From a virus (lineage: Duplodnaviria > Heunggongvirae > Uroviricota > Caudoviricetes), in the IMG/VR virus record IMGVR_UViG_3300022178_000016: 32,879 bases of DNA; one strand, written 5' to 3'. Of this stretch, positions 2,048 to 32,879 are shown piece by piece. The notes beneath the pieces are model-generated. The model was not told where the DNA came from and ran no database searches. It saw only the letters and a program-made list of their open reading frames with translations. A program made the position numbers and the translations under genes. How positions within the stretch are numbered: the first letter of the stretch is position 1; each line of letters opens with the position of its first letter.

Positions 2048-2469
2048 GGACAGGGTGAATATTCTATTAAGTGTATTCCTCTGTCCTTCTCATTTAACAG
2101 AAATGACACTTGAGATATTTGCTACTTAGAGTAAAGTAGATCGGATTGGAGAGATATGTCTAGCAATAGCTGCACTCACCGTACCAGTCCTAAAGAGCAA
2201 GAAGATACCAAGGCTCAAAGTGTGGGGTTGTGAGGGGATAACACTGGTTTAACGCCCTGTAAGGCGTAAATCCCTAACCTGATTGATTACAGTAGGATTC
2301 AGGTTGTCGCAGCTACAGGATAGCTGTTCTGCTTTATGCAGCGGGTTCATCTCGGTTGACGGAGAATGTGTCTCGGATAAAAGAACCAATGGTTTGTCTA
2401 GGTACTTTGTTTAAAGTATATGGCAAGCTATGGGATTCTTTTATCCAAATTATCTGATTTCAAAAGAAT
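2048..2469 (+). ncRNA. candidate large structured ncRNA (or RNA-primed origin)
   Basis: No credible ORF; directly downstream of a promoter; more than 10 helices found by eye (e.g. AACCTGA/TCAGGTT, CAGCTA/TAGCTG, ACGCC/GGCGT, GGACAG/CTGTCC, TTGCTA/TAGCAA) and a possible pseudoknot. Confidence 0.5.
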
Positions 2470-2513
2470 TGTTTATATTAGTATTTAAAATAGTTATTAT
2501 AGAAGAGGTTTTA

Positions 2514-3083
2514 ATGATTAAATCACAAATAGGGAATTACACTAAAGGGAAATACAAAAGTTATTCTGAAGGTAGTCTGACAAAAGAATACCGACTTTGG
2601 AAAAGCATGTTAAATAGGTGTTACGGCAAGAGCACACCAACCAGAAAGCCAACTTACAAAGGTTGCACTGTTTCAGATAACTTTAAGGATTTTCAGTTCT
2701 TTGCAGAGTGGTGCAATAATCAAGTAGGTTTTGGGAATGAGGGTTGGCAATTGGATAAAGATATACTAATCAAAGGCAACAAGGTTTATTCTGAAGACAA
2801 TTGTTGTTTTGTACCGAAAGAGATTAATTGCCTGTTTTTAGATCATCAAGCAAAGCGTGGTAACTGCCCTATTGGGGTTAGTTACCACAAGCCCCAAAAC
2901 AACTATCAAGTGTCCTTAAGTAAGTATGGTAAAGTACACAATCTTGGTTATTTCCTTGATCCCATCAATGCACATAAGCACTACATAGTTGCCAAGATAC
3001 TACATGTAAAAGAAATTGCTTTGTCCTACAAAGAGGCTATTGACCAAAGAGTTTATGAAGCCCTTATGGCTTGGGAAGGATGA
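2514..3083 (+). CDS. free-standing HNH homing endonuclease
   Basis: YRLWKSMLNRCY...PTYKGCTV...F..F..W...WQLDKDIL...YSEDNCCFVP.EIN; start re-placed at ATG 2514 after GAGG SD. Confidence 0.85.
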   Translation: MIKSQIGNYTKGKYKSYSEGSLTKEYRLWKSMLNRCYGKSTPTRKPTYKGCTVSDNFKDFQFFAEWCNNQVGFGNEGWQLDKDILIKGNKVYSEDNCCFVPKEINCLFLDHQAKRGNCPIGVSYHKPQNNYQVSLSKYGKVHNLGYFLDPINAHKHYIVAKILHVKEIALSYKEAIDQRVYEALMAWEG

Positions 3084-10998: not shown

Positions 10999-11012
10999 TC
11001 GGGAGAATTAAT

Positions 11013-11207
11013 ATGAACACTCAAAAACTTATAGGGTTATATCGAATTAATGTTTCATGGTATGGTAAATGTATATACCTTTGTAAGTATGATCCTAATG
11101 TAAGTTCCTACAGAAGTCCTTATGAAGTTTGTATTAAGCTGGATCAGTATGAGAATGAAGGGGAAGCTTTACAAGCTGGAATTGATAAATTGTTGGGAGG
11201 GAGTTGA
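11013..11207 (+). CDS. hypothetical protein
   Basis: 64 aa, GGGAG SD. Confidence 0.75.
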   Translation: MNTQKLIGLYRINVSWYGKCIYLCKYDPNVSSYRSPYEVCIKLDQYENEGEALQAGIDKLLGGS

Positions 11208-11208
11208 T

Positions 11209-11427
11209 ATGAAATTATACGCATGGAAACCTAATGGGTATGGTGAATATAGCTTCTTTGTTTGTGCTGGGAATGAACAGCAGGCAAGAACTGTAGTAGA
11301 CGCTCATATTGAAAGTTTAAAAGATGATGAATATTTTAGTGATTATGTTACTAGTGGGTGGGGAACAGACTACTATGAACTAACTGTAGTGGAACCACTG
11401 AATGTAATCACAAACTGTAATGACTAA
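11209..11427 (+). CDS. hypothetical protein
   Basis: Start at ATG 11209 (MKLYAWKP) after GGGAG. Confidence 0.75.
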   Translation: MKLYAWKPNGYGEYSFFVCAGNEQQARTVVDAHIESLKDDEYFSDYVTSGWGTDYYELTVVEPLNVITNCND

Positions 11428-11436
11428 GGAATACCC

Positions 11437-11994
11437 ATGAAACCTTTATTATTCATTATCCTAATAGGGTTGAGCCTTCCTATAAAGCCCGTAGAGCCAC
11501 GTTATGCAGGTTACCTAGGCAATCCTATTACCGAGGTTAAGAAAGAGCTTGTAGAGCCTTCTACTGAGGTACAAAAGGTCGCTGTGATTACAGATGACCC
11601 TGACACATGGACTGAACATGAGTGTTTGGCAAGGAATGTCTACTGGGAGAGCAAGGGGGAGGGTGTTAAGGGTATGGCACTAACCGCTCAAATCACCCTA
11701 AACCGTGTCAACAGTAATAAGAGGTATTTTCCTAATACTGTATGCCAAGTAGTTAGACAAAAACTCACTAGAGGGTGCAGCTTTAGTTGGTTCTGTGACG
11801 GTAAGTCAGATAAACCTAGAGAGTTGGCAAGGTTTGAAGAAGCAAAAGAAGTTGCAACAAAGGCTTTACAAGGTGAGTACAAGGACTTAATAAAAGTAAA
11901 GTATTATAAGCGTTGTGACACTCCCAGTGACTTCTTCAATACTCTTGTTTATAAATTTAGGTATAAGAATCACTGTTACTACTCAGAGGGTTGA
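11437..11994 (+). CDS. SleB/Hydrolase_2 family cell wall hydrolase with N-terminal hydrophobic anchor/signal
   Basis: CLARNVYWESKGE...LNRVNS...FPNTVCQVV...C(S)FSW; catalytic Glu in the YWES motif. Confidence 0.9.
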   Translation: MKPLLFIILIGLSLPIKPVEPRYAGYLGNPITEVKKELVEPSTEVQKVAVITDDPDTWTEHECLARNVYWESKGEGVKGMALTAQITLNRVNSNKRYFPNTVCQVVRQKLTRGCSFSWFCDGKSDKPRELARFEEAKEVATKALQGEYKDLIKVKYYKRCDTPSDFFNTLVYKFRYKNHCYYSEG

Positions 11995-12010
11995 GGGGAG
12001 GGTATTTAAT

Positions 12011-12805
12011 ATGAAGGACATTAAGAGTTTAGAACTTAGTAAAGACTTACACGGACTGTGGACAGACCCCACTGATTTAATCAGTAAACAGTACAATGGG
12101 TGTATTATTATTGAGTATTGTGGATGGGCGTGGGACGTAACAAAAAGAAGGAAACACTGGTATAAGATAGAATGTTTTTGCGGGGCACCATTCTACACCA
12201 ATCACACGATGCTGCGGTACAACTCCATCAAAGGTTGTGGTTGTTCTAGGGAGTCTTCTAGTAAAACCCATAACAGAAGTAATGATAAGGTCTACAGGAA
12301 CTATCATGGGATGTTAAATAGGTGCTATAACCCTAAACACGATGCGTATGATAACTACGGTGGTAGAGGTATCCGTGTCTGCGATAGGTGGCGTATGAAG
12401 GTACAAGGGTTCTATAACTTCCTAGAGGACATGGGGGAGATTCCTGAGGGGTTAAGCTTAGACAGGATTGACGTTAACGGAAATTATGCACCTGATAACT
12501 GTAGGTGGGCAACTAAAACAGAACAGAATTATAATCAACGAAAGAGGAAAGATAACACTTCAGGGGTTACTGGGGTTAGGTTGGAACCTAGGTACAATAC
12601 TTGGGTTGCTTCCATAAGAATTAACAAGAAAATTATACATCTAGGTTCTTACAAAACCCGCTATGAGGCATATTTAGCTAGGATTGGAGGGGAATTACTA
12701 CACTATGGCGTAATAAAACAGCCAGTTTTTAATACTGAGGAAGACTTTTATAAGTATATACAAGGCTATGTTCAAAGTCTGTCAATTCTCCTACTGGAAC
12801 AATAA
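12011..12805 (+). CDS. free-standing HNH homing endonuclease (HNH plus AP2-like C-terminus)
   Basis: MLNRCYNP...YGGRGIRVCDRW...SLDRIDVNGNYAPDNCRWAT...QN...DNTSGVTGV; start at ATG 12011 after GGAGG. Confidence 0.9.
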   Translation: MKDIKSLELSKDLHGLWTDPTDLISKQYNGCIIIEYCGWAWDVTKRRKHWYKIECFCGAPFYTNHTMLRYNSIKGCGCSRESSSKTHNRSNDKVYRNYHGMLNRCYNPKHDAYDNYGGRGIRVCDRWRMKVQGFYNFLEDMGEIPEGLSLDRIDVNGNYAPDNCRWATKTEQNYNQRKRKDNTSGVTGVRLEPRYNTWVASIRINKKIIHLGSYKTRYEAYLARIGGELLHYGVIKQPVFNTEEDFYKYIQGYVQSLSILLLEQ

Positions 12806-13001
12806 GAATTTAGAGATAAAAGACTTGCAAGCTTATGAGAAAGTGTATAGAATAGCTACACAGGCTTTGGGAGGTAAGTTTAAAAGCTTTACAAAGACTA
12901 CTTTCTGTAAAAGATGTGATGTTGAAAGTAAGTTCTTTGATACGTTGACCTTCAAAGGTGCTGTTGGTAAGCATTGTTATTTTCAAGTAGCTAGTAGGTG
13001 A
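12768..13001 (+). pseudogene. stranded duplicate C-terminus of the SleB hydrolase
   Basis: CQFSYW...ATQALGG.FK...KRCD...FF.TL..K...HCYF aligns with the end of 11437-11994 (about 26 identities in about 69 positions by hand). Confidence 0.85.
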
Positions 13002-13029
13002 TACTGGTCAATTAATAACTGGAGGAATT

Positions 13030-13197
13030 ATGAAAACAGAAGAATATTTAGGGGATGGACTATACGTCCAGTTTGATGGGTACCAGTTAGCATTAAAAGC
13101 TAATAGTCATGAAGACCCAACAGCTGTTGTCTACTTAGATGATAGGGTGTGGGATAATTTAGTTAGGTTTGTTGAGCAATTGAAGGAGGAAATATGA
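13030..13197 (+). CDS. small hypothetical protein (55 aa, not in ORF track)
   Basis: MKTEEYLGDGLYVQFDGYQLALKANS...; GGAGG SD; ATGA overlap with the ATPase gene. Confidence 0.8.
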   Translation: MKTEEYLGDGLYVQFDGYQLALKANSHEDPTAVVYLDDRVWDNLVRFVEQLKEEI

Positions 13198-14357
13198 AAA
13201 GGTACAAACTAACGATACAACCAGAATATTGTAATGACTGGAGCATTGCTGACGCAATACGGGAGATTCTACAGAACTGTCTTGATGCTCCAAGTACCTT
13301 TGAGTGGGACGCTGGGTTAGATTACATGACCTTAACAAGTAAAAATACTCAACTCCCACAAAGCACCTTATTACTTGGTAATACAAGTAAACGTGGGGAT
13401 AAAGACAGTGTGGGCGGAAAAGGTGAAGGGTATAAACTTGCAATGATGATCCTTGTTCGTGAAGGTGTTGGTATTGAAATTCGTAATGGTAATAAACTTT
13501 GGGTTCCTATTATCGAATGGGATCAGGATTTTGAAGCTAATATGTTGGTCGTGAATGAGACAGAGTTGACAAATAATACTGATCTAACCTTCTTTATTAA
13601 AGATATAGACCAAGATACTATTGACACAGTGATACACAACTGTTTATACTTACAAGACCAAAATTCTTTTGGTAACTACGCAACAGCAGGATGTGGGAGT
13701 CGTATTTTCTTTGATGTGGAGGGGTTACTATATGTAGGGGGTCTGTTCGTTTGCTCCACTAATCTCCAGTATTCTTATGATCTACATCCAAGTAAGATCA
13801 AGCTTACAAGAGATCGGAGAGAATGTTCAGGTTGGGACTTACAAGGAGTTACAGCTAGTCTCCTTAAAGAAGTAGCAGAACCTAAACGTATTGTAGAAGC
13901 AGCACAGAAAGATGTTGCAGATGTACACCACATGCAGTATAGTTGGAGTGTGAGTAGTATACCTTCGGAAGTAGCTGATGAGGCATATAATGTGTTTAAA
14001 GAAGCTTATGGGGATGATGCAGTAGTTGCAGAAAGCTACTCTGAAATGGTAAGCTTACAGGAACAAGGGTTTGTTAAACCTGTTGTAGTGAATGATAGCT
14101 TTGCTAGATTGATTCGTAGTTCTAGTGATTATGAAACTACATTTAGTGAACAAGAAGATGCTCTTGAAGTGGAAGAAGAGAAGTCCCCTTTAGAACTTCT
14201 GGAGGAATGGAAAGCTGAATGGGGTTATAACAACTCCCCAAGTGGTTTAGAATCATTTGAAAAGATCCTTGACATCTTTCGTGAACGTGAATTAGAATAT
14301 AAGTATGCTGCAAAGAATAAAACTGTAAAGGGTGAATTTGATGACATACAGTTCTAA
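13194..14357 (+). CDS. GHKL (HATPase_c/Hsp90/MORC-like) ATPase domain protein
   Basis: N-box AIREILQNCLDA and G boxes LGNTSKRGD...GGKGEGYKLA. Confidence 0.8.
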   Translation: MKRYKLTIQPEYCNDWSIADAIREILQNCLDAPSTFEWDAGLDYMTLTSKNTQLPQSTLLLGNTSKRGDKDSVGGKGEGYKLAMMILVREGVGIEIRNGNKLWVPIIEWDQDFEANMLVVNETELTNNTDLTFFIKDIDQDTIDTVIHNCLYLQDQNSFGNYATAGCGSRIFFDVEGLLYVGGLFVCSTNLQYSYDLHPSKIKLTRDRRECSGWDLQGVTASLLKEVAEPKRIVEAAQKDVADVHHMQYSWSVSSIPSEVADEAYNVFKEAYGDDAVVAESYSEMVSLQEQGFVKPVVVNDSFARLIRSSSDYETTFSEQEDALEVEEEKSPLELLEEWKAEWGYNNSPSGLESFEKILDIFRERELEYKYAAKNKTVKGEFDDIQF

Positions 14358-31047: not shown

Positions 31048-32167
31048 TTTAAAACAAAGTGAAGATTTAAAGTTAAAACTAATACAACTTGTCACAGTTA
31101 AAGGGATGAGTATAGCTTCTGCTGCTAGGGAGTTGGGATTAGCCCCTAGGACTTGTCAAGAATTCTTCAGTAAAGAAAAGAATTGGCAGAAGGTATGGTG
31201 GGGTAATTATGAGAAGGAGTTAGCCCAATATGGTGAATATTTAGGTAAGAGAACTTCTGAGTTCTTAGAGAGTACAATACCTGCACAATATTCTCACCCA
31301 TTAGCCACAGAAGAGGATAAAGAAGTTTATGAAACTTATAAGCGGCTTATGAAGAATGTACATAGTGGAGAGAGTAATACCCGCATCTTTCCAGAGCTTC
31401 CTCAGAAGGTTATTGTGGATACTGGCCTAAAGATTATCGTAATTGCAGATACTCAATGTAAACCAGAAGAAGATTTGGACTACATGTCTTGGATTGGTAA
31501 GTTTGTGAATGATAAGAAACCTGATGTTGTTGTGCACATCGGAGATCATTTTGACACCCCAAGTTTATCTAGTTATGACAAAGGCAAGAAATCTTTTGAG
31601 GGGCGTAGGTTAAAAGCAGACTTAGAAGCGGGAAGAAAAGGTCTTGAGTTATTTCAAGCAGAGCTTGACGAAGATTATAACCCTCGCTTAGTATTCTGCT
31701 TAGGCAATCACGAACAGCGGATAGACAGGCTTGCGAATGACATGCCAGAACTTGACGGATTTGTAGGTACTGGTTTACTGCCGTTAAAGGAGATGGGTTG
31801 GGAAGTTTATGATTTCTTACGTCCTGTTAATATTGGCGGAATATTCTTTGTCCACTACTTAGCTAACCCTTTTAGTGGTAAACCTTATGGTGGAAGTGCT
31901 TTGAATCAATTGAAGACTGTTGGTAATAGTTTTGTAGTTGGGCATAAGCAATGTCTGGATGTAGCTATTCGACCTACGTTGAATGGGAAGCATCAGATTG
32001 GTATTGTGAATGGAGCTTGTTACCCTTTTGATGAAAGCTATAAAGGAATTCAAGGTAACAACCATTTCAGGGGTCTTACCGTACTACATGAAGTTAAAGA
32101 TGGATTTGGGACACCAATGTTTGTTTCTCTGGACTATATGAAAGCAAAGTTTTATGAAGAAGTTTGA
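31040..32167 (+). CDS. calcineurin-like metallophosphoesterase with N-terminal HTH-like region
   Basis: IADTQ, HIGDHFD, LGNHE, FVVGHKQ motifs; N-terminal SIASAARELGLAPRT. Confidence 0.85.
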   Translation: MNNLKQSEDLKLKLIQLVTVKGMSIASAARELGLAPRTCQEFFSKEKNWQKVWWGNYEKELAQYGEYLGKRTSEFLESTIPAQYSHPLATEEDKEVYETYKRLMKNVHSGESNTRIFPELPQKVIVDTGLKIIVIADTQCKPEEDLDYMSWIGKFVNDKKPDVVVHIGDHFDTPSLSSYDKGKKSFEGRRLKADLEAGRKGLELFQAELDEDYNPRLVFCLGNHEQRIDRLANDMPELDGFVGTGLLPLKEMGWEVYDFLRPVNIGGIFFVHYLANPFSGKPYGGSALNQLKTVGNSFVVGHKQCLDVAIRPTLNGKHQIGIVNGACYPFDESYKGIQGNNHFRGLTVLHEVKDGFGTPMFVSLDYMKAKFYEEV

Positions 32168-32879
32168 TTTATCGGGGACGAGCCAAGGGAGGCTTAGTAT
32201 TCTAAGGTTTGCTGATGAAAAGGTTAACGGTAGACCAGCCTATGTGTGCATCTGTTCTTGTAGTCCAGAAAGGGAGATTATCAAATCATCTACCACTCTA
32301 CGGGGTGGTACTAAGAGTTGTGGTTGCCTTCACTCCGAAAATGCCAGAAAACAATTAAAAGCCGTAGAACATCTTATTACTACACACAACATGAGTAAAA
32401 CCCCAACTTATATCGCGTGGAGAAACATGAAGGCGAGATGCGATGATCCAAACCACCAAGCATTTAAAAATTACAAAGATAGGGGTATAACGTATTGCCG
32501 TGAGTGGGCTTCTTTTGAGAACTTCTTTGCCGATATGGGAGAGTGTCCTGAAGGTTTAACTCTAAACAGGATTGATGTAAACAGCGGCTACACTAAAGAA
32601 AACTGCGAGTGGGCTACTAATCATAAACAAGGTAGAGATAGGAGAAAACCAAAAAGCGGTACAAGTAGTAAATACAAAGGGGTATCTTACAGTAAAGCGG
32701 AGGACAAATACAAAAGCTACCTCACCTTAAAAGGAGAGCGCCTACATTTAGGATATTCTTCTGATGAAGAATTATTAGCCTGTCGGTATGATGAAAAAGT
32801 AATTGAGTTGACAGGGTGTATAGGAGGTACTAATATACAATTAGGTTTGCTGGATCCAGCAAACCTAATTGTATATTAG
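32154..32879 (+). CDS. free-standing HNH homing endonuclease (HNH plus AP2-like C-terminus)
   Basis: KSCGC, YIAWRNMKARC, RGITYCREW, FFADMGECP, NRIDVNSGY...NCEWAT, SSKYKGVS; same subfamily as 12011-12805. Confidence 0.85.
   Translation: MKKFDLSGTSQGRLSILRFADEKVNGRPAYVCICSCSPEREIIKSSTTLRGGTKSCGCLHSENARKQLKAVEHLITTHNMSKTPTYIAWRNMKARCDDPNHQAFKNYKDRGITYCREWASFENFFADMGECPEGLTLNRIDVNSGYTKENCEWATNHKQGRDRRKPKSGTSSKYKGVSYSKAEDKYKSYLTLKGERLHLGYSSDEELLACRYDEKVIELTGCIGGTNIQLGLLDPANLIVY

Follow-up and report, generated by a model that had tools for sequence, protein, structure and literature searches.

Organization of the hydrolase locus

Here we describe a locus of an uncultured phage (Caudoviricetes; IMG/VR record IMGVR_UViG_3300022178_000016) in which a complete gene for a predicted cell-wall hydrolase is followed by a free-standing HNH-AP2 endonuclease-like gene and by the 3' end of another hydrolase allele. 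The DNA analyzed, referred to below as the window, is a stretch of 32,879 nucleotides (nt) and belongs to a complete genome of 96.9 kb that has direct terminal repeats. The order on the + strand is complete hydrolase gene, 16-nt spacer, HNH-AP2 gene, and 5'-truncated hydrolase 3' end, and the nuclease gene fills the gap between the two hydrolase pieces exactly. An earlier note on this DNA had reported three open reading frames (ORFs), and we find them where it placed them, with the HNH-type gene exactly at the joint between the hydrolase and the fragment. The features of the locus are as follows.

11437..11573, + strand: leader, residues 1-46 of the working hydrolase, with a signal-peptide-like N-terminus; probable left homology arm (BLASTN and five-way alignment)
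11574..11994, + strand: catalytic Hydrolase_2 domain of the working gene, P0001/P0002 type, own stop codon included (PF07486, identity to P0002)
11995..12010, + strand: 16-nt spacer, forming the left edge of the nuclease cassette, with GGGGAGGG as Shine-Dalgarno sequence of the HNH gene (sequence reading; loss of homology to HNH-less relatives)
12011..12805, + strand: free-standing HNH-AP2 endonuclease-like gene, 264 amino acids (aa) (phrog_374, fold matches)
12767..12781, + strand: right joint, the 15 nt from where HNH homology stops to where P0013-type homology begins (ungapped comparison with L002)
12782..13001, + strand: 5'-truncated P0013-type hydrolase 3' end, 72 codons plus stop (match to L002 6327-6546)
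13002..13033, + strand: intergenic tail, collinear with the L002 sequence after the intact P0013 gene, up to the next start codon (BLASTN)
13030..13197, + strand: conserved 55-aa gene, right-hand backbone marker (comparison with relatives)

The hydrolase/HNH/fragment structure is present in at least 13 contigs from several samples, all with the same gene arrangement, and the 6 contigs that were aligned to the window match it at 100% over 12700-13040, i.e. with zero polymorphism. A scan for promoters and terminators gave no result above the shuffled background. The earlier note had also held that neither an intron nor an intein is involved, and both points stand: no Rfam match at E <= 1 lies within 11000-13500, so no intron RNA is detectable, and the working hydrolase is collinear with, and equal in length to, its HNH-less relative P0002, which leaves no room for an intein.

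The working catalytic domain is of one lineage

The working hydrolase gene has 185 codons (11437-11994), begins with a signal-peptide-like leader, and lies among small genes of early type. Its product matches Pfam Hydrolase_2 (PF07486, SleB/CwlJ-type) at 60.4 bits (cut-off 27) over profile positions 1-100 of 100, and phrog_938 (endolysin) at 3.7e-15. Residue E71, which lies in the N-terminal domain half, is nearly invariant across 18 aligned homologues; in SleB the acidic residue conserved in this half is the catalytic Glu. By these matches the predicted cell-wall hydrolase is a full Hydrolase_2 member. When 5.8 billion protein clusters were searched with the working protein, a graded family of hydrolases emerged. 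In INPHARED no protein match exceeded 31% identity. An INPHARED DNA search for close relatives of the phage returned short chance matches only, and the fragment had no match there.

Both halves of the catalytic core point to the same source. Specifically, the N-terminal half of the core (residues 54-113) is 98% identical to P0002 and P0003, and the C-terminal half (residues 114-182) is 97% identical to P0002. The contigs of P0002, P0003, and P0004 have no HNH gene after the hydrolase. P0013, an intact protein of the same family, is only 43% identical to the working protein in the N-terminal half and 38% in the C-terminal half. These identities show the working domain to be of one lineage throughout, namely an ordinary P0001/P0002-type allele. 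At the DNA level, homology of the working gene to L010, L006, and L008 stops at 11978, 5 codons upstream of the stop, and in the alignment homology to HNH-less relatives fades around the hydrolase stop codon.

The leader has a different history from the core. Over 11437-11573 its nt identity is 93% to L004, 79% to L002, and ~90% to L010, and it assorts independently of the core, being common to alleles with unrelated catalytic cores. For example, L010 and L002 have the same leader and different cores. In a five-way alignment the affinity of the window leader flips from L004/L006-like to L010-like inside an invariant 10-mer, GCTTGTAGAG, at ~11546-11556. On this evidence the leader/core boundary is a likely recurrent crossover point. 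Relative to a P0013-type genome, the predicted foreign tract is the DNA from ~11546-11573 through the catalytic domain and the HNH gene to ~12781. As side observations, at least 3 core types (~40% identity) carry near-identical leaders, two leader variants recombine within the invariant GCTTGTAGAG block, and phages of this group, whether or not HNH genes are present, seem often to swap domains at the leader/core boundary.

The fragment is the 3' end of another allele

The ORF that contains the fragment (12768-13001, 77 aa) takes its ATG from within the 15-nt joint and overlaps the end of the HNH gene. Its product aligns with residues 114-182 of the working protein at 38% identity (26/69; BLASTP, E 1e-15), the figure given by the earlier note, and reaches 20 bits with Pfam Hydrolase_2, below the cut-off of 27 and over profile positions 34-100 only. 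What is missing is the leader together with the N-terminal domain half, which holds E71.

The earlier note called this fragment a diverged spare copy. That it is a hydrolase 3' end stands, but it is not a copy that diverged in place. Compared with L002 6327-6546, the fragment shows 6 differences over 220 nt (97% identity), of which 4 are synonymous and 2 non-synonymous, and its product is 96% identical to the intact P0013 protein. A resemblance this strong goes far past what chance would give. In L002 the intact P0013 gene is followed by unrelated small genes, with no HNH gene, and in the search of 5.8 billion clusters the fragment had no close full-length relative other than P0013. The BLASTN block pairs window 12782-13033 with L002 6327-6580 at 94%. 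In the ungapped comparison with L002, identity stays at noise level through 12781 and turns to near-identity from 12782, i.e. the junction is sharp. The flanks are more diverged from L002 than the fragment is (79% in the leader, 76-83% downstream). Because the nt match is this close, the joint this sharp, and the flanks far more diverged, the fragment is best read as a recently stranded piece of a P0013-type allele, and not as an old paralogue. The two homologous 3' ends in tandem might suggest that the hydrolase 3' end was duplicated in situ and then diverged, but this can be rejected with near certainty, given a fragment that is 97% identical in DNA to the intact allele of another phage and 38% identical in protein to the copy next to it.

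The codons that the earlier note compared are confirmed: TGC AGC TTT AGT (CSFS) at 11776-11787 in the working gene and TGT CAA TTC TCC (CQFS) at 12779-12790 in the fragment. The TGT, however, lies in the 15-nt joint, at or to the left of the junction, and intact P0013 has Tyr (TAT) at this codon; P0013, P0145, and P0146 all read YQFS. The Cys of the fragment is not ancestral, and what is retained of the resident 3' end begins with the Q codon of YQFS. The CSFS codons of the working gene are also found in the HNH-less P0002 and P0003. As such, the argument from a canonical motif in the fragment and an altered one in the working gene loses most of its force. The motif DNA of HNH-plus and HNH-less alleles contains no discriminating target-site pattern.

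In a small sample, the window has G where L002 has A in the codons at 12779-12781, 12869-12871, and 12911-12913, giving two Tyr-to-Cys changes and one Glu-to-Gly change. Of these three positions, one is the junction codon, and the other two account for every non-synonymous difference between the fragment and L002. Neither of the two full-database protein searches returned a comparable stand-alone fragment, among three short matches (P0147, P0152, and P0160) of which only P0147 was traced to its contig. P0147, found in the search of 1.8 billion representatives, is a frameshifted hydrolase on a contig of 1.5x coverage and not an HNH-linked fragment.

The HNH-AP2 gene and its relatives

The HNH gene starts with the ATG at 12011, preceded by GGGGAGGG, and stops at 12803-12805. 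Its product matches PHROG 374 (HNH endonuclease) at 2e-62, while the match to Pfam AP2, at 20.8 bits, falls short of the cut-off of 33.3. In the AlphaFold model (predicted local distance difference test, pLDDT, 85.7) a small beta-barrel N-terminal domain is followed by a core (residues 85-177) and an AP2 domain (residues 184-241). The latter aligns with the AP2 fold of 2gcc_A (Z 6.9) and 1gcc_A (TMt 0.71, prob 1.00). The modeled protein thus clearly carries an attached AP2 DNA-binding module. A Foldseek search of the PDB with the model returned the AP2 domain only, and no relative of the protein was found in the PDB by sequence.

The HNH frame runs 24 nt into the fragment, close to the 25 or so that the earlier note had given. 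The last 12 codons are read-through into foreign DNA: they have no counterpart in P0026, the nearest HNH relative, and the tail is modeled at pLDDT 39. P0026 (L018/L019) is 65% (MAFFT) or 68% (BLASTP) identical in protein, and homology to it ends at 12751 in the DNA and at ~12766 in the protein, i.e. 15 nt or less before the fragment.

The P0026 gene also stands directly after a hydrolase gene, whose product has yet another, third type of core (63% identity to P0011). The ATG of the P0026 gene falls within the final hydrolase codons, at a shared TATGAAGA (L018:1040-1100 compared with L004:6510-6560). The L018 hydrolase ends in ..EEHKTSRIK* in place of the native ..EEYNS*, and this looks like a microhomology-mediated insertion joint. 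Across the group, an HNH gene after the hydrolase is sporadic, being present in the window phage and L018/L019 and absent in L002, L004, L006, and L010. The earlier note had asked for HNH-less relatives, and these exist for both allele types. Other scans added little: IMG/VR searched with the hydrolase, the fragment, and the HNH protein gave nothing or only HNH genes 42-44% identical, a JGI metagenome scan with a two-member HNH alignment gave one partial match (57%), and the IMG/VR, JGI metagenome, and INPHARED searches together added no instance of the same unit in another background and no cluster of fragments.

Origin of the arrangement

We consider it probable that a nuclease-caused, gene-conversion-like event brought in the catalytic domain together with the HNH gene and stranded the resident 3' end. 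We favor this reading because the fragment is 97% identical to L002 with a sharp joint, the working core is of a single lineage, the left boundary lies in the leader, HNH homology ends at most 15 nt from the fragment, the relative in L018/L019 occupies the same position, and HNH-less relatives of both alleles are known.

The proposed sequence of steps would begin with an HNH-AP2 homing-endonuclease gene whose usual place is immediately 3' of hydrolase genes and a resident phage with a P0013-type hydrolase gene. The nuclease, or a copy of it from a co-infecting phage, would have cut the resident allele near its YQFS codons. The left end would then have been resected across the non-homologous catalytic domain as far as the leader, the sole DNA shared by the two alleles, and repair synthesis would have copied the P0001/P0002-type catalytic domain of the donor and the HNH gene in one event. 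The right end may have been resolved at the break, or within a few bases of it, by illegitimate or short-homology repair; alternatively, it may have paired with a fragment that the donor carried beforehand, following the model for WHO elements discussed below. Either route would leave the old 3' end stranded as a non-functional fragment.

Several points weigh against this account. Nuclease activity is assumed from the PHROG annotation and stays putative, because the motif is atypical, no Pfam or NCBIfam HNH model matches the protein, and fold support for the core is modest. Specifically, the motif reads L-D-R-I-D...N-C-R-W...N, with DRID in place of DHID and thus without the canonical first His. 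The Arg at this position, R152, is invariant across 45 homologues; HNH_3-type proteins have the His of DHID here. Residues 85-177 align with 3m7k_A, the structure of the HNH enzyme PacI, at Z 6.0 and a root-mean-square deviation of 3.0 over 75 residues, giving the beta-beta-alpha-Me assignment of the core its modest support.

The population evidence is also thin. The structure is confined to one clonal phage, with no second fragment-bearing lineage in INPHARED, IMG/VR, JGI, or the full-database protein searches. No HNH-less form of the window phage was found, exact look-ups of two flanking proteins returning the same structure only, and no donor carrying a P0001-type gene and the HNH gene without the fragment was found either. 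In L018 the P0026 gene is followed immediately by a homologue of the window's 387-aa gene, with no fragment. Cleavage of the resident allele and resistance of the donor allele are candidate features, and it is the truncation alone that gives the event a direction, i.e. that suggests which allele was resident. Finally, these phages are strongly mosaic, and a joint formed without the nuclease is therefore a real, if less probable, alternative.

An extended form of the homing account is that the trio of P0001-type domain, HNH-AP2 gene, and P0013-type 3' fragment is a self-contained, WHO-like homing unit, which we put forward only tentatively and hold to be clearly less likely than a nuclease-caused event as such. 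Such a unit would putatively cut P0013-type alleles at the YQFS codons, with the fragment as right arm and the leader as left arm. Each round of homing would swap the entire divergent domain (~40% identity) and renew the fragment from the recipient, and this renewal would explain why the fragment, at 97% to L002, is far closer than any flank.

The strongest competitor to nuclease-caused conversion is mosaicism, in which illegitimate recombination between co-infecting phages would have joined a P0001-type gene to a truncated P0013-type gene, with the HNH gene as a bystander that was already downstream of the P0001-type gene or arrived later in the hydrolase 3' end. The genes around the locus are indeed heavily shuffled among relatives, with blocks of identity that end where genes end and with different genes downstream of the hydrolase; in addition, unrelated phrog_374 HNH genes occur elsewhere in the interval (L011, L009), pointing to frequent insertion there, and the L018 HNH gene follows its hydrolase gene without any fragment. 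We nonetheless judge it rather unlikely. It would be a coincidence for the joint to lie no more than 15 nt from where the nuclease gene ends, a break inside a gene is unusual where the other joints lie at gene boundaries, and the left boundary of the tract falls in the nearest shared homology, as resection from a break predicts.

Far less probable is that the 77-codon ORF (12768-13001) encodes a working small protein, e.g. a partner or regulator under selection, and is not a scar. The frame is open and has an ATG with a weak AAGG upstream, and of its 6 differences from L002 only 2 alter the protein; this low divergence is, however, equally explained by a recent event. The predicted protein would have neither leader nor the half of the domain with the nearly invariant Glu71, and the database searches described above, with one of three short matches traced, yielded no stand-alone counterpart.

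The model of the earlier note fares marginally worse still, and we find it hard to credit. In that model the mobile unit was a new hydrolase 3' end, starting at CQFS, plus the HNH gene, and the working protein a chimera of a native N-terminal and a foreign C-terminal half. Homology of the fragment does start at the motif, and the geometry is that of WHO elements and fungal mitochondrial mobile ORFs. However, both working halves match the same HNH-less allele, P0002, which, like P0003, already has CSFS, and the expectation that the fragment would share the lineage of the N-terminal half is contradicted by P0013, the protein it resembles at 96%, with its 43% identity to that half. What survives is the fragment as the stranded 3' end of another allele, with the HNH gene at the joint; the tract that came in is not limited to a 3' end and covers the whole catalytic domain, with its left boundary at ~11546-11573.

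Comparison with known homing systems

The kind of event that we favor, nuclease-caused conversion, is already known from phage intronless homing and from the gene-end-replacing homing elements of yeasts and fungal mitochondria. A close parallel in layout is found in the WHO elements at FBA1 of Torulaspora and Lachancea yeasts, where a nuclease gene lies between a full-length target and a 3' fragment (Coughlan et al. 2020, PMC7282813). As there, the arrangement in the phage involves no splicing, and the old 3' end is pushed downstream of the nuclease gene; in the WHO model, the fragment also acts as the right-hand homology arm (PMC7282813). The differences are as follows. WHO nucleases are intein/LAGLIDADG-derived, whereas here the protein is of HNH-AP2 type and from a phage. 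The WHO target is chimeric exactly at the cut site, with 5' parts that are 99% identical, while the breakpoint here lies in the leader: the two alleles have no DNA homology in the domain, and the whole catalytic domain is replaced back to that point. Furthermore, we see no clusters and no repeated integrations, and cleavage by the phage protein is putative.

In fungal mitochondria, mobile ORFs (mORFs) create gene hybrids at atp6 of Allomyces macrogynus and at atp6, atp9, cox2, and nad3 of Glomus (PMC3630166). The order of foreign coding part, endonuclease ORF, and native C*-terminal fragment is the same, and in both systems the native fragment is much closer to element-free relatives (91-98% for mORFs, 97% here) than to the part in use. 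Unlike the phage locus, mORFs replace the C-terminal portion only, and their nucleases are LAGLIDADG or GIY-YIG enzymes of organelle genomes. The part in use in the phage is nearly identical to the element-free allele P0002, i.e. it appears to be an ordinary allele that moved and not a recoded end specific to an element.

Among phages, free-standing endonucleases of T4 cut far from their own genes and co-convert flanking markers, and one-sided T4 homing with illegitimate microhomology joints has been shown experimentally (reviewed in PMC2988022). The locus resembles this intronless homing by Seg and Mob endonucleases of T4-like phages in having a free-standing endonuclease gene between phage genes and a co-inherited flanking allele from the donor. 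In Seg/Mob homing the cut site may be hundreds of bp away, inside a neighboring gene, and microhomology junctions form when one flank has no homology (PMC2988022). Unlike those systems, the nuclease here belongs to an AP2-fused, DRID-motif family known from sequence, and in the review a term search for target-gene duplicates or remnants gave 0 hits (PMC2988022). Our literature searches likewise found no phage report of a stranded target-gene fragment. The hydrolase itself resembles the Hydrolase_2/SleB-CwlJ proteins annotated as endolysins in Pseudomonas PAK_P3-like and other phages, with a PF07486 match over the whole domain and ~31% identity; it differs from them in its signal-like leader and its position among early-type small genes, and a role in lysis is putative.

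What the locus adds is the replacement of a whole domain, with the "before" allele (L002) and the HNH-less "cargo" allele (L010) both sampled intact. If the favored account is true, the locus would be a clean natural before-and-after pair, in which a phage homing endonuclease carried a whole, functionally equivalent, and highly divergent enzyme domain with a short conserved leader as the sole homology. The reach of marker exclusion and intronless homing would then go beyond the polishing of alleles to the replacement of modules, and phage endonuclease genes would be tied to the elements that replace gene ends in yeasts and fungal mitochondria. In phage pangenomes, scars of this kind may also lead to small ORFs that are spurious and to gene phylogenies that disagree, and the 5' edge of the fragment offers a specific guess at the cut site of the putative nuclease.

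Neighboring genes and other endonuclease genes

The 55-aa gene to the right of the fragment stands directly after the hydrolase gene in the HNH-less relatives L011 and L020. In L009 it is fused to the hydrolase: the ORF at L009:3262-4014 (P0006, 250 aa) joins the hydrolase in frame to a homologue of the 55-aa gene, either as a real fusion or through an assembly error. A phrog_12424-like gene follows the hydrolase in HNH-less relatives (L010:1499-2014, L004:6533-7069, and L002:6577-7029) and is missing from the window phage.

Unrelated PHROG-374 HNH genes (32-40% identity) stand after the conserved 55-aa gene in L011 (6702-7376) and L009 (4001-4555), the L009 copy without an AP2 domain, and because of these genes the interval between the hydrolase and the 387-aa gene appears to be a hot spot for endonuclease genes. 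A further AP2-containing HNH-like gene, of 230 aa, lies at L004:1046-1738 between phosphoribosyltransferase and NAPRTase genes and is absent in L002 (332-2928), making this another presence/absence endonuclease site in the phage group. The window itself has two more HNH-AP2-like genes, at 2430-3083 and 32154-32879, the latter of which is 41% identical to the HNH gene studied here and reaches the end of the window.

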